DNA of 63,391 bases, counting the filler, from Basidiobolus ranarum (Eukaryota): assembly GCA_040143965.1 (NCBI GenBank). It is 42 parts of 42 records of this genome, joined end to end, with 100 filler letters (N's around TTAATTAATTAA, not from the genome) between each part and the next. Parts side by side here need not be neighbours in the genome. Positions count along the whole stretch, not along the records: positions 30,313 to 31,725 come from JASJQH010012140.1; 41 more parts are not named here. One strand, written 5' to 3'. Position 1 is the stretch's first letter. The number at the start of each line of letters is the position of its first letter. The notes under the pieces are model-generated. The model was not told the DNA's origin. It saw only the letters and a list, made by a program, of their open reading frames with translations, and made no database searches. Position numbers and translations under genes: made by a program. This document shows, one piece after another, positions 3,037 to 58,876 of the stretch.

Positions 3037-4006
3037 TTAGACGAGGATAACAAGCTCTTACCCAGATAAAACAGAACAGAACAAAAGATACTTTCAGACC
3101 TAATACTAATGGTTGAATCCAGCTTATCGTAGTCTTAACCCAATTTAATGCCCCTCCTAGCTCAGGATATAACCAGGCTGGCCCCACCTCTCCGGCAGAG
3201 GCAAAGGTAGTAGAGATAGGTAGGCTCGCGAGTGGAACTAAGTAACCTCCAAAGAATAATATAATAGTAAAAGTAGAAATTAAGATCATAGAACCATATT
3301 CTGCCAGGAAGAATAGAGCAAAACTTAGAGAAGAATGTTCTGTATTGAATCCTGAAACTAATTCACTTTCTGCTTCGGGTAAATCGAAAGGTGCTCGATT
3401 TGTTTCAGCTAGGGCAGAAATAAAGAATATCAGAGCTAAAGGTAATAAAGGAAATAAGAACCAAATAGCTTTTTGTGATTCAATAATTGAACTAAGATTT
3501 AATGTTCCAGCTATAATTACTATTGGTAATATAATTAATCCAAAGTTTATTTCATAAGCAATCATTTGAGCTGTTGATCTTAATGAACCTAAAAATGCAT
3601 ATTTAGAGTTAGCAGACCAACCTGCAAAAATAATCCCGTATACTCCTAATGAAGATATCGCTAATAAATATAGTATTCCATTATTCATATCTGATAAAGC
3701 TAATCCTTTTGAATAAGGTATTACTGCCCAACCTAAAATACTTAATGTTAAACTTAGTATTGGTGCACCTAAGAATATTGCTCTATTTCCATGTGATACT
3801 ATAATTGTCTCTTTTAGGAATAATTTTAAACCATCCGCTAAAGGTTGTAATATCCCAAATAAACCTACTTTATTTGGTCCTAACCTTCTTTGCATTGAAC
3901 CCATTACCTTTCTTTCTGCTAAAGTTAAATAAGCAATAGTTAATAATAAAGGTAGAATTATCACTATATCCTCTGTTAATGATTTTAACAATATAAGACA
4001 AAACAA
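3037..4006 (-). CDS. nad1: Mitochondrial NADH dehydrogenase subunit 1 (3' end truncated)
   Basis: [47 protein letters not shown] and FIWVRA.YPRL. AT-rich, uninterrupted, all Trp as TGG. Confidence 0.97.
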
Positions 4007-4020
4007 TTTTTATAATACCA

Positions 4021-4454
4021 ACCCAAAGTCCGGGGGGGGGGTTCGTCCGCACCCCGGGGGCGGCGGGGGGGGGGGGGGGGGGGGTCCCCCCTTCGGGACG
4101 GGGGGTTCGCAATCCGTCCCCCCTGGCCCGCATGAAAGGGGCCCCCCAACCCCCCCCCTGGAGAGGGGAGGGGGAAAGCGCTCGCGACTTTCGGGGCACG
4201 GCGAGCCCCACCCCCTAAATGGCCCCCCCCCTTTTCTGCCCCCCCCCCGCGCCACGGCCCGAAGGGACCGTCAAAGGGGCCCCGATTGGCCCCCCCAAAG
4301 GAGGGGGGGGGGGCGGGCCCGTGCCCCCCGGGGGGGGGGGGCCCCCGGGGGGGGCTTTTACATCGCTTTTATTTTGGGGGGGGGGGGGGGCGCCCCCCGA
4401 ACCCCCCGCGCGCCAAACCCACCGCCCCCCCCCCGGCCCTTCCCCCCCCCCCCC
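4021..4454. repeat. Extremely GC-rich, hairpin- and homopolymer-rich tract upstream of nad1 (mitochondrial GC-cluster-like, probably low sequence quality)
   Basis: Abrupt switch from AT-rich to G/C runs. Stems: GGGACGG(4095-4101)/CCGTCCC(4114-4120), CCC-GAA-GGG (4258-4266), CCC-TTC-GGG (4089-4097). Confidence 0.6.
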
Positions 4455-4554: not shown

Positions 4555-5971
4555 CAGTAGGCTTTACGCTCTCAGAGTGCTTAGAATTCACTGTGTGCTT
4601 TACACTCTCAAAATGAGCAGTGCCGGCTGTAGGCTTTACGTTTTCAGAATGACTAGAGCTGACAGTTGGCCTCGAGTCTACAGCGCTGACTGTGGGTTTT
4701 CCGCTAGCAGGGTGCTTAGTACTAACTGTAGATTTTACGCTTTCAGAGCGACTAGAACTGATCGAGGGCTTTACGCTTTCAGAGTGACTAGAGCTGATAG
4801 TTGGCCTTACGCTTTCAGAGTGAGCAGTGCTGGCAGTGGGCTTCTCAATTTCAGAGTGAGCAGAGCTGACTGTGGGTTTGTCGCTTTCAGAGTGCTGATA
4901 ACTGACTGTAGGCTTTAGGCTTTCAGAGTTCTTAGAACTAGCGGTGGGCTTGACGCTTTCGGAATGAGCAGTGCTGGCAGTCGGCTTTACGCTTTCAGTA
5001 TGACTAGAGCTGGCAGTCGGCTTTACGCTTTCGGAGTGAAGTGAGCTGGCAGTGGGTTTTATGCTTTCAGAATGGGCAGAGCCAACGGTTGGCTTCATAA
5101 CTTCAGAGTGCTTGGAACTGACCGTGGGCTTTGCACCCTCAGAGTTGTTAGAATTAGCGGTGGGCTTAACGCTTTCGGAGTGAACAGAGGTGGCAGTAGG
5201 CTTTATGCTTTCAGAATGGGCAGAGCTGACGGTTGGCTTCACAATTTCGGAGTGAGCAGAGCTGGTATTGGAATTCACGATATCAGAGTGAGCAGAACTG
5301 ACAGTGGGCTTAGCACTTTCAGGGTGCTTAGAACTGACAGTGTACTTTACGCTTTCAGATTCAGCAGAACTGGTAGTGGGCTTCACGATTTCAGAATGAG
5401 TAGAGCTGACAGTTGGCTTCATGCTTTCAGAGCGACTAGAACTGGCCGAGGGCTTTACGCTTTCAGTGTGAGCAGAGCTGTCAGTAGACTTCACAATTTT
5501 ATAATGACTTGAGCTGACTGTAGGCTTTACACTTTCAGACTTAGTAGAACTAGTCGTGGGTTTAATGTTTTCGGAATGACTATGGCTGACTGTGGCTTTT
5601 ATGCTTTCAGAGTGAGAAGAACTGGCACTGGGCTTTACATCTTCAGAGTAACTTGAGCTGACAGGTGGTTTTACGCTTTCATAGTGACTAGAGCTGATTA
5701 TTGGCTTCACAATTTCAGAGTGACTTGAGCTAACTGTGGGCTTTATGCTGTCAGAGTGAGGCAGGCTGGCAGTGGGCTTTACAGCTTTAGAGTGACCAGA
5801 GCTGCCAGTCGACTTCACACTTTCGGATTGCTTATAACTGGCAGTGGGTTTTACGCTTTTAGAGTGAGCAGAGCTGACGCTTGGCTTCAAGCTCTCAGAG
5901 TGAGCAGAGCTGACGCTTGGCTTCAAGCTCTCAGAGTGAGCAGAGCTGACGCTTGGCTTCAAGCTCTCAGA
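4555..5971 (-). CDS. Internal fragment of a Ser/Thr/His-rich 12-aa tandem-repeat (mucin/adhesin-like) protein
   Basis: Open across the whole contig. About 39 units of 36 bp (KPTVSSAHSESV) with many synonymous differences and no frameshifts. Confidence 0.8.
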
Positions 5972-6071: not shown

Positions 6072-7378
6072 TTGAGTCCTTCAGGGAGAAAGCCAATAGG
6101 TTCCAAATGGGTCCGCAAAGTCAAAAACCAAGCTGATGGAACCATAGAAAGGTACAAAGCAAGATCAGTAACAAAAGGCTATTCCCAAACTCCAGCAGTT
6201 GATTTTACTCAAATCGTTGCTCCAGTAGCTAAATTTAGCTCCACTAGATCAATCCTGGCACTCTCAGCTGTCCATAACCTGCATGTTCATCAAATAAATG
6301 TAAAAACATCCTTTCTGAGAGGAAATCTAGAAGAAGAGTTCTATATGGAGCAACCAGATGGATTTGCCAATCCAAAACATCCTGATATAATTTATAAACT
6401 GCAAAAATTGCTACATGGACTCAAGCAAGCACAAGGGGCATGTTACAACAAGCTAGATACCTATTTGGAATCACTAAAATACCAAAAGTGCACAGCAGAT
6501 CACAGTATACTTACAAAACAACAAGAAATAGGATTCTTATCTTGGCACTATAGGTCGATGACTTAATCATAGCCACAAATGATCTAGAAGCACTTATTCA
6601 GACAAAAAGCAGCTTATCATACCATGTACAGATGACTGATATGGGTGAATCAAGTTACTTTCTTGGAATTCAAATCAAGAGAGATAAACCCAGTCAGAAA
6701 GTCATGCTGAACCAGTCTAGATAATTCCTAGACATCCTAAAATACTTCAACATCAAAAACAGCAGGCCTGTGTCAACACCAATGGATCCCAATGTGAAAT
6801 TAATAAAAATTGCTTCTGATTTGGCCCACAATGACTCAAATTAAAGGTATGAACTCCCTTATAAGTACCTGGTGGGTAGTTTAATGCATATAATGGTTGG
6901 AACACATCCAGTCATCTAGTTTGATATATACAATGGTTGAAGCACATCCAGACATTGCTGTAGCAGTGAGAACTGTCAGCCAATTTCTTAAAAATCCAGG
7001 ATCTTAGCACAAAGCTGCAATAAAACAAATATTTGTGTATATGAGAGGAATTGTAGATCTAGTTCTGCCATACTATGCCACTCCTGATGCATGAATTTTG
7101 AAGGCTACAGTGATGCAGACTGGAAAAAACCCTTGATTGTAAAAGATCAACAATTGGATACAATGTTCTCTGTAGTTATGAAAGCTTAACTTGGAATAGT
7201 AAGAAGCAACCAACCAAAGCACTTTCCACTGCAGAAGTAGAGTATATAGCTGCCTCTGCTACTACACAAGAAGCTATTTAGTTGAGGAAGTTATTCATAG
7301 ACCTACGATACATGCAAAGACATGCTATTACTGTACTTGAAGATTATCAATGTTATGTTTAATAGATAAAAACCCAAT
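6072..7378 (+). mobile_element. Ty1/copia RT-RNaseH, degenerate
   Basis: KPIGSKWV, ERYKAR, QINVKTSFL, YMEQPDGF, GLKQA, a stop-disrupted YVDD and YSDADW. Confidence 0.93.
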
Positions 7379-30212: not shown

Positions 30213-30313
30213 NNNNNNNNNNNNNNNNNNNNNNNNNNNNNNNNNNNNNNNNNNNNTTAATTAATTAANNNNNNNNNNNNNNNNNNNNNNNNNNNNNNNN
30301 NNNNNNNNNNNNT

Positions 30314-30475
30314 GACTCATATGGCCACGTTGCCGTAGTCGAAAGCATCAACGATGACGGAAGTGTGTATACGAGTAACTGGAACTACATAATCAATGGA
30401 GAGGGAGGACCTTATATCACCACCTACGTCACCTTCAACACTGGTGAGGGAGTGTCATTCATCTGGTATGAGTAG
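30314..30475 (+). CDS. 3' end of a CHAP-domain (cysteine/histidine amidohydrolase-peptidase) gene
   Basis: DSYGHVAVVESINDDGSVYTSNWNY...TTYVTFNTGEGVSFIWYE*. Contains the GHVAxVE catalytic His motif. Confidence 0.82.
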   Translation, partial: DSYGHVAVVESINDDGSVYTSNWNYIINGEGGPYITTYVTFNTGEGVSFIWYE

Positions 30476-31465
30476 ATACCACTTCTGGCCATAAATACCC
30501 GCAAAAGATAACGCAACTAGCTATCTTTTGTTTCTTATTCCCTATTCATACTTTTGATATAGAATAATTAGAGAGCATTGAATGCAAAATAAATATACCA
30601 TTAATGAAGTATTGGCCACGCTGAATATTTATCTCTAGAATCTTATCTGATGTTTACGGGGAAAATTAGCAAAATTAATTTTCCAACATCTCGAAAATGA
30701 ATTAAAAAATATGTAGTCTAAGATTACTGCCAAAAAATTGGTTTCGCTTTAACTGAATGTTTTCTTTTTCTTTCTCGCTCTACTCCTCGTATTTGTTGCA
30801 AAAACAGATATACATGTGCTGTTGCTCAATGGAGTCGTCATACTTGGACCTATATTCTTGTTAAACCTCTTTTTGTATTGTTAGATGGATATAGCTCCCT
30901 ACTACTGCAGATTGTTTTTAATTTCTGTTAATTACAAAAGTAGCGTATTAGCGTTCCCACTTAGCATCTTGTTAATAAATAAAATTCCTTAGTTTTTACT
31001 TCAGGAGTTACTAGAGATTTCCCAGATTCATCCTCTTGAAAAGATTCCCGCAAGATCATATGAAATTCTCATCAACTGAAAATACAAAATAAAATCTAAT
31101 CTAAACCGATCTAGACTACTGAGAGTTGAACATTTTCCAGCCACAATGGAGACTATGAATCATTATGTATGGTATATTTGTTCCCATGTTCAGTAGACTA
31201 TATTTGTGACTACTCTTTAAACAAATATCTTAACAAGGATTCAGATAACAGGCCTTACCATATTTAAACATATTCCCATATGTGGTAAGAGCGATCGGGA
31301 ACTGAAAATAACTGGATTGAAGGTTTGTTCCAGAGGATTCACTTGAATCAAGATCCGTAATTCATTGGAAAAACACTTGGCAGATTGAACAACTGCTCAG
31401 ATATAAAGACTAAACTCACGCCCCTGTTAAGCTCACAGTCAATTATACTGCAATACAAAATTAAA

Positions 31466-31725
31466 ATGGTCAAAATCTCATCTGGTCTATCTTACATCTG
31501 CCTTACCGCTACTGCTTTCTTGGGCTTAGCAGTACAAGCTCTTCCAGCTCCAAGTGCCACTTCTGTCATTCCGCTATCTAACCACACTGAGGTATTGGCC
31601 GAGAAGATCATACTTGGTGATATCACCAACTTTGACGCCTGCTCTCTCCAATTTCGTTTTGACAATGGCCAGTGTACTGACTGGGCCGATGCTCGCTACT
31701 ATCAACTGACCTGCCAACATACTCA
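31466..31725 (+). CDS. 5' end of a secreted CHAP-domain gene (second tandem copy)
   Basis: TATAAA near 31402; signal peptide MVKISSGLSYICLTATAFLGLAVQA; FDNGQCTDWADARYYQLT with the catalytic Cys at 31673. Confidence 0.78.
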
Positions 31726-31827: not shown

Positions 31828-32900
31828 TTTGATATCACCAAAGCCTTTGACTCAGTAGACAGAGATCTGCTGTGGAGAAAGCTTCAGTCTTTAACTTCCA
31901 AGTCCTTCACTATGCTAGTGAGAGCCCTCTTTATTGATAGTAAAGCCAGAATCCTCCATCCTGAATTCACTTCCTGCCTATACCCAGTGCCCAATGGTGT
32001 GGTGCAAGGTTCAGTGCTAGGTCCTCTGCTTTTTGTGATATTTCTCAATGATTTTCCTCAGCTGTCCCCTGGATCTCTGCTTACTTTATTTGCTGATGAT
32101 ATAAGAGTTTCTACTTCTCAGCCTCAGCTGGATACTGCTACTATTCAGAGATACCTTTCAGAAAATAACTTGGAGCTCTCTATTGCCAAAACAATCCCAA
32201 TTGGTTGCACTATTTCCTTGTATAATACTCAGCTTCTTCATATGAACAATGCAACATATCTAGGATTTCCATTTACTCAAACTGGCATTGATGTGAAGAA
32301 ACACTTGTCAGTTAGTATTACCTTGGCTAAGCAGGCTGTTCACAAGTTACTTGCTGTTACACCACCCAATACATCTTATCATGGCTGTCAAAGACTTCTC
32401 AAGCAGTTTGTGATACCAGTTCTGGAATATAGAGTATATCTGCTCCCACTCAACCAAAGTGACTACTCTAAGCTTGATAGATTCATCAGCTACTGCCTCT
32501 GGCGGCTGATACCTGACTTGCCTGAGACTCCCTATGATCATGCTCTGAATGGAACTTTGGATTCTTCCTATATCATATTAGAGTAGTTTTACTCAGGGCA
32601 AGATTTCTACTCCAACTAAATGACCTAGAAATCCACTGATTAAGAAGTGGCTAGCCACACCATCTTCAAATGCACTATCATGCTGGAAGTTGATACAAGA
32701 TGATCCTCTTGTTTCTGAGTTAGCTTTACAGCTGCATGAAACAAAACAGCCTAAAATTGTTGCTATAGACTTCCAGCAAGACCTTTGGAAGCAATGCCTT
32801 GCCTCTAAGACACCTTTCTGGATTCCCATTGTTCCAGATTTTGTCCTATTGTCCATCTAGTTTGTACTGAGTATCTTCCTTTCTGCTTACCACCTGTGCC
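31828..32900 (+). mobile_element. Non-LTR retrotransposon (LINE) reverse transcriptase, degenerate
   Basis: FDITKAFDSVDR, GVVQGSVLGPLLF, LFADD and TYLG. Confidence 0.9.
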
Positions 32901-45419: not shown

Positions 45420-46716
45420 CTTAATATCTATGTGTTTGCTTCTATTATGAAATGTGGGATTTTTAGCTAATTTGATACAACTTTGATTATCTTGAAATAT
45501 TGTAGTTGGTGAATTTTGAGAATAACCCAAGTCTGTTAAGAGTTTTCTTAACCATATTGCTTCTTTTGTTGCTTCACAGGCAGCCCTGTACTTAGCTTCT
45601 GTTGTTGAAGGTGCTATGGCAGGTTGTTTCTTTGAATTCCAAGAAATAGCTCTATTACAGCAAAGAAATAAGTATCCTTTTGTAGATCTCCTGTCTTCAA
45701 TATCTCTTCCCCAATTGGCATTTGAATATCCCATTGGATCAAAGTTGGATCCAGAATAGGTGTGTTTTAAGCACAGATCCACAGTACCTTTCAAATATCA
45801 GAAAATCTGCTCAACTGCCATGATTTGATCAGATCCATAATTTTGAAGATATTGGCACACAACTCCCACAGAATATGCAGTCTGTGGCCATGTTCCAACC
45901 ATGATATACATCAAACTACCAACCATAGATTGCTAAGGAAACTTCTGGCTTTCATTTAAATCCAAAAACATCTAATTTGAGCCATTTTTGGTCAAGTTTA
46001 GATCTGCTCCATTGGCACAGATACTGGATAACATTCTCCCATTTTAAACTTCTTTAGTATTTCTAGTATATACTTAGACTGGTTTAAAGTTCTTGTTTTG
46101 GTAGTTCAATCTATCTTAATTTGGATTCCATTATAATATGGCAGTTCACTAAAATCAGTCATTTTGAATTTAGCAGATAAGCTGCATTTGATTTTCTCCA
46201 AAGTCTTCACATCATTAGTTGCTATAATATGTTCATCTACATGTAAGGCCAATAAATTGGGCATGTCTTATCTGGCCTGAAGTAGATACTATAGTCAGCA
46301 TTACTCTTTTGGAATTTAATTGTTTCCAAAAAAGCATCTATCTTACTATTCCAAGCTCTTGGAAATGGTTTTAAGCCATAGAGTGTTTTCTGGAGTCTGC
46401 AAACTTTTTTAGGGTCTTCTGGGTCCATAAGTCCATGTGGCTGGTTCATATAGATCTCCTCAGCAAGTTCACCATTCAAAAAAGCAGTTTTAACATCCAT
46501 TTGATATATTAGAAACTGCTATTTAGCTTAAATTGCTAAAGTCAATCTAATTGAATCAAACTTTGCCACATGAGCAAAAGTTTCTGTATAATCTCCTCCT
46601 GGTGCTTTGGAATAGCCGTTAGCTACTAGCCTAGCCTTGTTACTTTGTATATTGCCATCAGAGTTGTATTTAACTTTGAACACCCATTGGCAGCCAATTG
46701 ATTTTCAATCATCAGG
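45420..46716 (-). mobile_element. Copia RT-RNaseH, degenerate
   Basis: [29 protein letters not shown] and RSKHIDIK. Confidence 0.94.
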
Positions 46717-51448: not shown

Positions 51449-52854
51449 ATTCCAAGGAACTTTGCCAGGAGTTTCATGAAGCCTACCCAGAAAAACCTGG
51501 CCCTATGATGTCTGCAAGCCATCACTAAAGAAGGGGATACTGTCATGATTCTGATCTTGCATGCTGATCCATTACAAATAGAACTTCTCTATTATTTGAT
51601 TATGACATTATACCTGCTGTGCCATCCCTTCTTAGCAATCTGTTGTCAGTTCATCCAAGTTATCTTATATGGAAATCATGTTCTTTGGAACATTCCATGA
51701 AACCTAACCAATCATGTCATCCTACACATAGTGTATTTCCACTAAGACCTTCCATGGAAGGTCACCTGATCATCCTTACATCATCCTGACATCATCCCTC
51801 TTTGTATTGGTCCTTGTAGTCCCCAACACCCCAACTCTTAAACTTGCCACAGTATATTCCCTATTCAGTATATTATGTTTCAAGCAAACTCCACCTCCTA
51901 CTCCATATTTGCCAACCTGCAAAGTATCCAACTCATCACCAGCTCAACTACTAAAAACATCTATAAAGTCAATATCCATTGACAGTATTGCTGAAGAGCT
52001 GAAACAAACATAACCTATGGTTCATAAGCTCCCCCCAAATGTCAAGCCTTTGATGATGTCTTTGAGAAGAAGAAATCTGATATACTCCCAGCTCACCACT
52101 CATATGATTGCCCTATAGATCTACAAGAAGGAAAACAACCACCATTTGGGCCTACATATTGGCTGACCCAGCCAGAACTCAAGATTCTGAAAGAGTATAT
52201 TGCAGAAAATCTGGAGAAACGATTTATCCAACATTTAAAGTCCCCAGCAGGCTCTTCAATCTGATTTGTTGAGAGAAAGGATGAATCCCTTCATCTCTGT
52301 GTTGAATATTGAGGCCTAAATAGCATTGCAGTCAAAAATCAGTACCTCTTGCCATTAATCAACTAACTCTTGGATCAGCTTGCTTCAGCCAAGGTGTTTA
52401 CAAAGATTGATCTAAGAGGTGCTTGCATTCTTGTAAGAATTAAACCTTGAGACCAATGGAAAACTGCCTTTTGAACTTGCTATGGACACTTTAAATATAA
52501 TGTCATGCCATTTGGACTTACTAATGCCCCAGCAGTCTTTCAACACATGATCAATGATATCTTCAGAGAGTATCTTGATCAATTTGTGGTTATCTACCTT
52601 GATGCTATCTTAATCTTCTCAAGCCCTCAAGAAGAACATAATATTCATATTTCCCAAGTCCTAGAAAGGTTGAAAACCTCTGGGCTCTATGCTAAACTTG
52701 AGAAATGTGAATTTGATCAAGCTCTAGTTGAATTCCTTGGATATAACATCAGCCCATCAGGCATCTCCTTGGACCTTAAGAAGGTTGAATCTGTTCTGTC
52801 TTGGGATATTTGCAAGAATGTGAAGGATGTCCAATCTTTCCTTGGATTTGCAAA
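51449..52854 (+). mobile_element. Ty3/gypsy chromovirus: chromodomain tail, PPT (51528-51540), truncated LTR (51541-51882), then RT
   Basis: SKELCQEFHEAYPEKPGP; AAGAAGGGGATAC|TGTCA; FTKIDL, MPFGLTNAPAVFQ, YLDAIL and KCEF. Confidence 0.92.
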
Positions 52855-57949: not shown

Positions 57950-58876
57950 ATGGAGAAAAGCAGCAGCTTACACAATATATTGAGACTACTTGTTCTCATA
58001 TACTTGACTTTCAGAGGCGAAGCGTCAGATACCGGTGCCTATAATTGTGTGCGCCCAGACTATCATCCCTCCAACAATACAATCTACAAGTCATTTCATC
58101 ACTATTCTACGAACATTGTGAACAACGACACTCGCGTAAAAATCCACTATGTTCGTGAAGGGCCAAAGGATGGCCAGACAGTGGTGTTGATTCATGGCTA
58201 TCCTCAGAGTTGGTACGAATGGAGACATCAAATCCCAGAACTTGTCAAGGCTGGGTATCAAGTGGTTGCATTCGATACCCGTGGTCAAGGAGAATCATCC
58301 ATCCCCGATGAGGGATATGATGGGTTAACCGTTGCAACCGATCTGCATCTTGTGCTACAATCGCTAAACATCACCAGAAATGTGCATGTTGTTGGCCACG
58401 ATATTGGAGTATGGATTGGATTTGCCTACGTAAAAGAGTTTGCTAATGAAGTTTCAAGCTTCACAGTAAGTGGGTCACCTATTCCCAATGAAATATTTGG
58501 GGATTTTTCAGCATATCCTAGACCCGGTATATTCAAATGGTGGTTTGCATCCTTGCAAACAGAGCCAAGTCCATTTCCAGAAGACCTTGTTAGATGTAAA
58601 GAGCGCTTATACTTTAGACATACTTTTGACTTTTTGATGCATCCAGATACCCGCTCTGGTATCAACGAAGAAGATTTCGATGAATACATCCGCATCCTGT
58701 CCCGAAAGAACGCATTCAGAGCCGGAAATGATTACTACAGAAACTTTTGGAAGACTGTAGATATATACAAATCTAAGGGATACTACAAGACACCTCTTAC
58801 CATTCCGGTACTTGCTGTAGTTGATACTGTTGTTGGTGCGCTCATTGCCTCAACTACGAAAGACTATGCCTCCAAC
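57950..58876 (+). CDS. Alpha/beta hydrolase of the epoxide hydrolase family, probably secreted, intronless, 3' truncated
   Basis: HGYPQSWYEW, D.RGQGES, VGHDIG (Asp nucleophile) and DYYR. Hydrophobic N-terminus; TATAAA near 57876. Confidence 0.9.

Follow-up and report, generated by a model that had tools for sequence, protein, structure and literature searches.

CHAP domains are found typically in bacteria and phages, and the borrowing of bacterial cell-wall hydrolases by eukaryotes is an established concept. In the oomycete Saprolegnia parasitica, a secreted and duplicated CHAP family of 7 genes has been attributed to bacterial transfer, for which the table of that study names no donor (Jiang et al. 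2013, PMC3681718). S. parasitica belongs to a different eukaryotic lineage from the fungus Basidiobolus, and its CHAP proteins are absent from both match lists obtained here. The same concept is represented by the transferred papain-like peptidoglycan hydrolases that Trichomonas vaginalis directs against bacteria. However, these are NlpC/P60 rather than CHAP enzymes, the host is a protist, and their activity has been shown experimentally, whereas that of the Basidiobolus proteins is predicted from sequence (PMC6299479).

Two groups of bacterial and phage CHAP proteins can be set beside the Basidiobolus family. The staphylococcal and phage hydrolases (2k3a, 5t1q, 9eum/9euf, 4olk, 4csh) share its Pfam family, its fold and the aligned Cys and His, although the identity is 18-31%, the Glu position of 2k3a is Asn or Asp here, and the host of the present family is a eukaryote. 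CHAP proteins of the Ktedonobacteria (Thermogemmatispora, Ktedonobacter, Dictyobacter, Tengunoibacter) are 44-60% identical over the whole CHAP domain, have the same motifs (QCT.WA..RY, PSIIV.QPG.QG, GHVAVVE and TSN.N) and form the sister clade; some of them also lie next to a paralogue, as in L045/L066 and L053/L067. They differ in architecture, having 220-400 aa and a long N-terminal region with a hydrophobic stretch, whereas the Basidiobolus proteins have ~180 aa, a predicted signal peptide of 25 aa and a short linker with an N-x-T sequon. The Ktedonobacteria proteins are sometimes called 'surface antigen'.

In strain CBS 931.73 of Basidiobolus meristosporus, 806 transfer candidates have been reported (5% of the genes), of which 61% are without introns and which have a fungal-like composition, and many transferred NRPS genes are described for Basidiobolus (Tabima 2020, PMC7466969). 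CHAP, peptidoglycan, Chloroflexi and Ktedonobacter are not mentioned in the main text of that study, and its one related entry, in Table 3, is an NRPS-like gene with 'GNS bacteria' as best hit; the CHAP family may stand in its supplementary gene lists. The family genes are already public under the uncharacterised annotation "Peptidase C51 domain-containing". Our literature search found no paper discussing a Basidiobolus CHAP family, which is not mentioned in PMC9391592 or PMC8778642 either, and among the titles listed for Ktedonobacteria, horizontal gene transfer and fungi none was on this topic.

Here we describe a contig of Basidiobolus ranarum that, with a probability of roughly 70%, represents a Basidiobolus nuclear pair of genes for putatively secreted CHAP proteins that go back to an old Ktedonobacteria-related transfer, were expanded in tandem and putatively serve in bacteriolysis.

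Two partial CHAP genes on one contig

The window, i.e., the whole stretch of DNA analysed (63,391 nucleotides, filler included), consists of 42 short contigs of 1405-1418 bp each with N/TTAATTAATTAA spacers between them. The contigs are ordered by length, and neighbours in the window are therefore not genomic neighbours. An Rfam search of the window gave 0 matches. The CHAP finding concerns exactly one contig (30313-31725, 1413 bp), with the following features:

30313..30475, + strand: 3' end of CHAP gene A (translation, Pfam CHAP, family profile)
30326-30328, + strand: catalytic His codon of gene A (GHVAVVE motif)
30377-30379 and 30383-30385, + strand: polar pair of gene A, both Asn (TSNWNY motif)
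30476..31465, + strand: intergenic spacer of 990 bp, GC 0.33 (ORF and composition scan)
30588..30593, + strand: AATAAA hexamer, 113 nt past the gene A stop (motif scan)
31402..31407, + strand: TATAAA hexamer, 64 nt 5' of the gene B ATG (motif scan)
31466..31540, + strand: gene B start codon with the predicted 25-aa signal peptide, whose last residues are VQA before LP (hydropathy, family motif)
31541..31725, + strand: gene B linker and beginning of its CHAP domain (family profile, relatives)
31580-31588, + strand: N-glycosylation sequon NHT in the gene B linker (sequence)
31673-31675, + strand: catalytic Cys codon of gene B, NGQCTDWADARY (alignment to relatives)

An earlier note, made from the DNA alone, had described the 3' end of one gene at the start of the contig and the 5' end of another on the same strand at its end, with both breaks inside genes. 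Translation confirmed this layout, which consists of the last 53 codons of gene A, the spacer and the first 86 codons of gene B. The gene A piece (codons 30314-30472, TAG stop at 30473-30475) reads DSYGHVAVVESINDDGSVYTSNWNY...GVSFIWYE; the motif that the earlier note had given as VSFIWY* is thus present, but the terminus is WYE*. Gene B starts at the ATG at 31466, within AAAATGG, in agreement with the AAAATG context noted before, and its 86 aa (codons 31466-31723) read MVKISSGLSYICLTATAFLGLAVQA up to the predicted cleavage site, followed by LP...NGQCTDWADARYYQLTCQHT; the contig ends 16 codons past the Cys. The N-terminus is hydrophobic, with a hydropathy window maximum of 2.0 at residues 13-23, and the cleavage site is predicted there because a (V/T)xA-LP motif is conserved across the family, so that the signal peptide proposed earlier is upheld as a prediction from hydropathy and family motif.

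The AT-rich spacer of about 1 kb with a putative TATA box was also recovered. All of its ORFs on both strands are shorter than 45 aa, and no repeats of note were found within it or in common with other contigs of the window, in which it is unique. The AATAAA hexamer is a candidate polyadenylation signal of gene A, and the TATAAA hexamer is a candidate TATA box of gene B.

Family membership, catalytic residues and fold

Both pieces belong to a putatively secreted "Peptidase C51" family with proteins of ~180 aa. Against a family profile of 186 nodes, built from 34 Basidiobolus relatives, the N-terminal piece matched nodes 1-93 (68.2 bits) and the C-terminal piece nodes 134-186 (93.5 bits). The pieces are therefore complementary parts of one type of CHAP protein, as the earlier note had put it, with 40 positions missing between them, and both are colinear with their relatives and intron-free over the stretches seen. 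The search with Pfam CHAP (PF05257, peptidase C51) that had been recommended for both halves was less decisive. Each piece is incomplete; the C-terminal piece scored 24.8 bits (3.1e-5) against a cut-off of 26 and the N-terminal piece gave no match. All 34 aligned family members match this Pfam family, however, with 61.9 bits for the B. meristosporus protein P0004, the full-length relative closest to the two pieces. In the representative search, residues 2-86 of the N-terminal piece matched P0015 (E 6.6e-11).

The assignment to CHAP is further supported by solved structures. Profile A1 matched 2k3a (1.1e-17) and 5t1q (8.9e-17) with the Cys and His motifs aligned, so that the catalytic Cys (GQCTDWA) and His (GHVAVVE) claimed for the two pieces are both in place; NGQCTDWA of gene B aligns to GQCTWY of 2k3a and 5t1q, and TSNWNY of gene A to VSEMNY of 2k3a. 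Within the family, the Cys is conserved in 34/34 members, the His in 33/34 and Asn152 in 34/34, while position 150 is occupied by Asn in 27 members and by Asp in the other 7. In CHAP domains, the catalytic Cys opens the first helix and the His lies on a beta strand. A third polar residue (Glu, Asp or Asn) ~17-19 residues after the His is presumably catalytic, as in phage CHAP structures.

For P0004, an AlphaFold model reaches a mean pLDDT of 76.8 (82-98 in the domain), and all 12 Foldseek matches of this model at E <= 0.001 are CHAP-type cell-wall hydrolase entries, the best PDB matches being 9euf, 2k3a, 5t1q, 9eum, 4olk and 4csh. The papain-like alpha+beta fold is thus that of the modelled P0004 rather than of the pieces in the window. 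An ESM Atlas search returned generic bacterial CHAP clusters only. One of the CHAP-type fold matches, 2lrj, is deposited as a staphyloxanthin biosynthesis protein.

CHAP domains also include amidases that do not act on peptidoglycan, and the genes could be real, transferred and fungal without encoding killers of bacteria, acting instead on other amide substrates such as secreted peptides or lipopeptides, soluble fragments of peptidoglycan (as nutrients or signals) or proteins of the fungal wall itself. The fold of the E. coli Gsp amidase is matched weakly (3a2z, E 0.06), none of the 34 family members was found to carry a cell-wall-binding module (SH3b, LysM) or an amidase partner domain, and Basidiobolus has the many transferred NRPS genes mentioned above. 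On the other hand, every sequence or fold match at E <= 0.001 is a bacterial or phage CHAP-type cell-wall hydrolase entry, the Gsp amidase matches are far weaker, and the sister bacterial proteins are surface-anchored, like autolysins. We therefore regard such a non-bacteriolytic role as rather unlikely, and bacterial peptidoglycan as the favoured substrate.

One gene or two

The earlier note had spoken of a tandem array. The contig holds two partial + strand copies in head-to-tail order 990 bp apart, which bears out a same-strand pair, but an array of more than two genes, or a set of collapsed near-identical copies, goes beyond what it contains. Whether the pieces derive from one gene or from two paralogues is a question between which identity distances do not discriminate: the N-terminal piece is 57-59% and the C-terminal piece 89% identical to P0004, and both distances equal those between P0004 and its closest paralogues over the same columns. 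The best scores of the N-terminal piece were with P0011, P0057 and P0004, and that of the C-terminal piece with P0004.

An assembly artefact would account for these values if the 3' and 5' ends of a single CHAP gene had been mis-joined, as a chimera or a permuted repeat unit, so that there would be no tandem pair. The values of 57% and 89% are as for one gene of the subclade (58% and 87% for P0004 vs P0005), the pieces are exactly complementary, and the assembly is very fragmented, with all contigs of the window at ~1.4 kb. Against this, the ends of the contig do not overlap with each other, the spacer provides no repeat that could cause a mis-join, and a collapsed array of identical copies would still be a tandem one. 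Moreover, adjacent family genes are indicated elsewhere in B. ranarum: the locus tags K7432_016307/016308 follow one another on a contig of only 3253 bp, and K7432_005993/005994 do so on a contig of 19377 bp. A mis-join is thus improbable in our judgement, and we continue with the contig as a pair of adjacent genes.

The pair belongs to an amplified family, in line with the amplification suggested earlier: 36 family clusters were found across the two Basidiobolus species, 19 in B. meristosporus and 17 in B. ranarum. In B. meristosporus, paralogues with the same scaffold length are mutual closest relatives. Several cross-species pairs are starred in the trees, and the expansion is therefore older than the split between B. 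meristosporus and B. ranarum.

Residence in the fungal genome

CHAP being typical of bacteria and phages, and the contig being short and without informative flanks, a bacterial contaminant in the fungal assembly has to be considered. The earlier note had argued against it, and the evidence now extends that argument. Two small genes are separated by 990 bp of AT-rich, ORF-free sequence, and the predicted N-terminus is of the eukaryotic type, matching Basidiobolus signal peptides and not the long N-terminal regions of the bacterial proteins. The GC content is 0.47 in the coding parts and 0.33 in the spacer, and its median among the bacterial relatives is 0.55; the mean for fungal genes is 0.4865 (Tabima 2020, PMC7466969). 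Identity reaches 89% to Basidiobolus vs <=68% to any bacterial protein, and the scaffolds that carry the B. meristosporus homologues measure 83-268 kb, those of the second genome project being on contigs of 1.9-32 kb. Besides, contamination is very unlikely because a separate contig of the window likewise comes from Basidiobolus, being 86% identical to a B. ranarum protein. Together with the N-x-T sequon and the TATAAA and AATAAA hexamers, this evidence makes it very probable that the gene is resident in, and adapted to, a eukaryotic genome.

Bacterial relatives and the case for transfer

In the search with P0004, the best 35 of 53 matches were all Basidiobolus, followed by Ktedonobacteria and unnamed sequences at 50-60% and then by a drop to 37%. 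Among the 53 matches of this search and the 42 of a second one, Basidiobolus was the only eukaryote. Outside the genus, the nearest relatives are thus bacterial, and among eukaryotes the family is patchily distributed. The absence of other fungi from the matches speaks against vertical inheritance across the fungi.

A scan of prokaryotic genomes, with one genome per species and 185,579 species by the stated size of the collection, gave 76 loci, all 76 from Chloroflexota and mostly from named Ktedonobacteria, none of them above 60% identity. The scan is biased to close relatives because its motif patterns came from the family itself; it agrees with the link to Ktedonobacteria that the earlier note had named. 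Metagenomes were scanned twice, and neither scan contained a Basidiobolus-like contig. The scan with P0004 produced 308 pattern matches, none of them a relative, and the scan with the family alignment yielded 14 loci with a GC of 0.67-0.73 and 30-39% identity, which on these grounds are bacterial and distant and were used as outgroups only.

In the trees, where all outgroups are bacterial, the Ktedonobacteria form one clade (97/100, stem 0.64). The careful free tree required two changes for Basidiobolus, which stood as one side of a branch in 0/200 bootstrap trees, and the attachment of the outgroups was weak (62/91) and lay inside an unresolved Basidiobolus backbone. A single Basidiobolus clade was nevertheless not rejected, with a tree 1.82 lnL units better (p-AU 0.559). 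A quick tree had suggested this clade (SH-aLRT 84), whereas the careful tree is without it, although the AU test allows it; we therefore claim sister groups only. The phylogeny with bacterial CHAP proteins proposed in the earlier note thus places the Ktedonobacteria as sister, but does not put the fungal genes within the bacteria sampled, so that donor and direction are suggested by distribution and not by topology.

A sister position without nesting would also suit vertical descent of an old eukaryotic or fungal gene that only Basidiobolus has retained. The number of independent losses required would then be very large, and this history has to contend with two match lists without any other eukaryote, with outgroups that are all bacterial and with visible gene parts that are intron-free. 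We consider it highly improbable, and prefer transfer from bacteria.

Proposed history and function

The distribution suggests that one old transfer from a bacterium to the fungus is the most likely origin of the family. After it, a eukaryotic signal peptide and a short linker open to glycosylation would have taken the place of the bacterial N-terminal region, and the base composition would have drifted toward that of fungal genes. Expansion, presumably in large part by local tandem duplication, would have brought each genome to 17-19 copies or more before the two Basidiobolus species split. The contig would then carry, in the nuclear genome of its host (Zoopagomycota), two neighbouring members, on the same strand, of a family that is specific to Basidiobolus and has close relatives only among membrane-anchored CHAP proteins of Ktedonobacteria.

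The mature domain of ~150 aa is predicted to be secreted, and its Cys-His-Asn/Asp papain-like site to cleave the peptide moiety of bacterial peptidoglycan at an amide bond. Neighbouring bacteria in gut, dung or soil would be lysed or weakened as their peptidoglycan is cut, in competition or for feeding; judged from its sequences, the family probably lets the fungus lyse bacteria.

If the proteins are active, a gut-dwelling, early-diverging fungus would possess a large, fungus-adapted family of peptidoglycan hydrolases, i.e., a protein-based antibacterial mechanism beside the secondary metabolites proposed for Basidiobolus. The family points to the Ktedonobacteria or a relative as a source of genes, and its proteins would be lysins for which secretion and glycosylation by a eukaryote are natural.

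A wider reading is put forward tentatively, at somewhat below an even chance. It would see in each Basidiobolus genome a diversified arsenal of secreted CHAP lysins, 17-19 or more in number, derived from one old transfer out of a Ktedonobacteria-related lineage, an unusual donor, and grown by tandem duplication. Some paralogues would have gained a Cys-rich N-terminal module of no known family with an Asn-rich linker, one a C-terminal hydrophobic tail, and the arsenal would act in selective lysis of members of the herptile gut or dung microbiota. If true, the fungus would offer a parallel to the diversity of phage endolysins, and lysins suited to expression in eukaryotes could be drawn from it. 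Within the family, the paralogue P0050 has a Tyr in place of the catalytic His.

A pair of partial CHAP genes on one contig

The window (1-63391) is built of 42 contigs of 1405-1418 bp in descending order, joined by N44-TTAATTAATTAA-N44, and since contigs adjacent in it are not genomic neighbours, the flanks of the finding are not readable from it. The finding occupies exactly one contig (30313-31725, 1413 bp), which carries the following features:

From 30314, + strand: gene A, 3' piece, 53 codons (DSYGHVAVVESINDDGSVYTSNWNYIINGEGGPYITTYVTFNTGEGVSFIWYE), then a stop at 30473-30475
Between this stop and the next ATG: spacer, 990 bp, GC 0.33
31466 to the contig end, + strand: gene B, 5' piece, 86 codons (MVKISSGLSYICLTATAFLGLAVQALPAPS...NHTE...ACSLQFRFDNGQCTDWADARYYQLTCQHT), ATG context AAAATGG

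The spacer has no ORF of at least 45 aa on either strand, lacks notable repeats and resembles no other window contig. An AATAAA hexamer lies 113 nt 3' of the gene A stop, a TATAAA hexamer lies 64 nt upstream of the gene B ATG, and the N-terminus of gene B is hydrophobic. Against a family profile of 186 nodes made from 34 Basidiobolus relatives, the gene A piece (C piece) covers nodes 134-186 with 93.5 bits and the gene B piece (N piece) nodes 1-93 with 68.2 bits. The two cover complementary stretches of one type of protein and leave a gap of 40 positions; no intron is visible, as each visible part aligns colinearly with the relatives. No other contig within the window holds a piece of the family. 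The feature is thus real and the outline in the earlier note correct: coordinates and codons confirm the 3' end of one CHAP gene, a spacer and the 5' end of a second on the same strand, and the profile and colinearity bear out complementary halves, intron-free as far as visible. The terminus given there as VSFIWY* leaves out the final Glu.

Family, fold and predicted activity

Pfam CHAP scored 24.8 bits against the C piece, whose truncation leaves it just short of the cut-off (26), and the N piece (86 codons) had no Pfam CHAP match. CHAP is the sole Pfam family matched by all 34 aligned full-length relatives, with 61.9 bits for P0004, the closest full-length relative, from B. meristosporus. 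The family profile also found solved CHAP structures (2k3a, 1.1e-17; 5t1q, 8.9e-17; the phage phi812 hub CHAP and PcsB), in which the GQCT and GHVA motifs align; together with the relatives, these matches support the CHAP identity proposed earlier. The catalytic Cys and Asn152 are conserved in 34/34 members and the catalytic His in 33/34, while 27 members carry Asn and 7 carry Asp where the staphylococcal Glu aligns. The window itself contains the Cys codon (31673-31675), the His codon (30326-30328) and both Asn codons.

Judging from family and fold, the product would be a secreted, CHAP-only enzyme of ~150 aa that would cleave an amide bond in the peptide part of peptidoglycan, and this cleavage could lyse or weaken neighbouring bacteria around a fungus of guts, dung and soil. 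In the AlphaFold model of P0004 (domain pLDDT 82-98), all 12 PDB fold matches at E <= 0.001 were CHAP-type cell-wall hydrolase entries from staphylococci, streptococci and their phages, including 2lrj, deposited as a staphyloxanthin biosynthesis protein. The main biological rival is a non-lytic amidase role; the E. coli Gsp amidase was a weak fold match to the same model (E 0.06), and we consider this role unlikely. A secreted, peptidoglycan-cutting and bacteria-lysing role is the most likely one predicted from sequence and model.

Several paralogues depart from the common architecture. P0008, P0012 and P0013 form a Basidiobolus subgroup of 237-249 aa with a Cys-rich N-terminal module (CPDGNGLYCG...WSWSY...C.NGCV) and an Asn-rich linker ahead of the CHAP domain; no Pfam family matches this module, which may have been added on the fungal side. 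The B. ranarum protein P0006 bears a 48-aa C-terminal extension with a hydrophobic tail at its end, possibly a membrane or GPI anchor, and P0050, also from B. ranarum, has Tyr for the catalytic His and may be an inactive paralogue.

Distribution and origin

The C piece is 89% identical to P0004 (B. meristosporus CBS 931.73) and 87% to the B. ranarum protein P0005. Among 53 matches to P0004, the best 35 were all from the two Basidiobolus species. Next came proteins of Thermogemmatispora and Ktedonobacteraceae and unnamed ones from metagenomes, sharing 50-60% identity across the domain; below these, identity falls to 37% (Macrococcus), and no other eukaryote occurred among the 53. Two protein searches combined gave 36 family clusters, of which B. 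meristosporus has 19 and B. ranarum 17. A prokaryote scan with one genome per species (185,579 species by stated size) yielded 76 loci, all Chloroflexota and mostly named Ktedonobacteria, which bears out the link to that group suggested in the earlier note; the scan's patterns were taken from the family itself, which biases it toward close relatives.

In a quick tree (116 rows, 112 columns), Basidiobolus formed a single clade (SH-aLRT 84), with the C piece in a starred clade with P0004-P0007. A careful tree of 87 rows, with bacteria thinned at 80% identity (75 to 41), omitted the window piece and two very long outgroups and added eight high-GC metagenome CHAPs as outgroups. Ktedonobacteria came out as a strong clade (97/100, stem 0.64); the backbone of Basidiobolus was not resolved, the outgroup joined it weakly (62/91), and 0 of 200 bootstrap trees had Basidiobolus as one side of a branch. 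A single Basidiobolus clade was not rejected by the AU test, the constrained tree being better by 1.82 log-likelihood units (p-AU 0.559). The trees are best read as showing the fungal genes and Ktedonobacteria as two sister groups, the fungal genes not nested within the sampled bacterial diversity. The all-bacterial outgroups, the presence of the family in several Ktedonobacteria families and Basidiobolus as sole eukaryote point to transfer from bacterium to fungus.

That eukaryotes have acquired bacterial cell-wall hydrolases by transfer is established. In Saprolegnia parasitica, seven duplicated genes make up a secreted CHAP family that is attributed to transfer (PMC3681718), and Trichomonas directs NlpC/P60 enzymes that it acquired against bacteria (PMC6299479). 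Massive bacterial transfer, with 806 candidates, was reported for B. meristosporus CBS 931.73 (Tabima et al. 2020); the main text of that paper is silent on CHAP, peptidoglycan, Chloroflexi and Ktedonobacter, and its supplementary lists may include the genes. A literature search found no paper pairing Basidiobolus with CHAP, and the examined part of the literature on Basidiobolus and peptidoglycan does not mention the family.

Residence in the fungal genome

The bacterial relatives have 220-400 aa with a long N-terminal region, whereas the fungal proteins instead start with MVK, a hydrophobic core and (V/T)xA-LP, followed by a short linker and usually an N-x-T sequon. Coding GC is 0.47 in the window pieces versus a median of 0.55 in the bacterial relatives; fungal genes average 0.4865, and Basidiobolus transfer candidates are mostly intronless and indistinguishable from fungal genes in composition (Tabima et al. 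2020). Homologues in B. meristosporus sit on long fungal scaffolds. Bacterial contamination, against which the earlier note had argued, is therefore ruled out for practical purposes by the fungal-type N-terminus, the GC content and these scaffolds. An unrelated contig of the window codes for an alpha/beta hydrolase whose best matches are proteins of B. ranarum (86% identity) and B. meristosporus (71%). Taken with the identities of the C piece, this marks the assembly as a Basidiobolus that equals neither of the annotated species.

Tandem arrangement

The tandem array claimed earlier stands as a same-strand pair, the only one shown on the contig. Both pieces are as distant from P0004 as P0005 is, which fits either two close paralogues or a single unit whose copies have collapsed. 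That one CHAP gene was mis-joined, leaving no tandem pair, seems unlikely to us; B. ranarum has members with consecutive locus tags on a 3253-bp contig (K7432_016307/016308) and on a 19,377-bp contig (K7432_005993/005994). In B. meristosporus, scaffolds of size 122,520 and 176,536 would hold three paralogues each and one of 160,813 two, same-scaffold status being inferred from equal scaffold lengths, and paralogues with equal scaffold size mostly cluster in the tree. Starred B. meristosporus/B. ranarum pairs (e.g., P0014/P0015, P0017/P0019, P0056/P0065 and P0016/P0066) show that most duplications are older than the divergence between these species.

CHAP paralogues of different subclades also lie within a few kb in bacterial relatives, so adjacent pairs are not peculiar to the fungus:

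6647825-6654625: loci L045/L066, Ktedonobacteria bacterium brp13
1661709-1668848: loci L053/L067, Dictyobacter aurantiacus

Other contents of the window

3038-4009, - strand: NADH dehydrogenase subunit 1-type ORF, mitochondrial-type (Pfam NADHdh, 1.3e-105), open under table 11
3933-4454, + strand: very G-rich low-complexity stretch on the same contig
4556-5971, - strand: 472-aa open frame across the whole contig, GC 0.48
31828-32583, + strand: RVT_1 (3e-15), on the contig adjoining the finding in the window
57950-58876, + strand: alpha/beta hydrolase with an epoxide-hydrolase N-terminus

Retroelement fragments occur on many contigs (31828-32583, 6072-6566, 45420-45797, 52475-52854 and others), with copia/gypsy-like Gag and RT ORFs on contigs other than the one adjoining the finding; their abundance fits a fragmented assembly. 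The 472-aa frame consists of Ser/Thr/Lys/Pro-rich repeats of ~13 aa (SESVKPTVSSSH-like), matches no Pfam family and resembles a mucin-like protein, either of the wall or secreted. A TPT transporter is also encoded. Beyond its best matches, which are in Basidiobolus, the alpha/beta hydrolase is closest to unnamed proteins from metagenomes (39%) and to Actinomycetota (e.g., Catenuloplanes, 36-37%), all of which rank above any other fungus; it may be another gene of bacterial origin.
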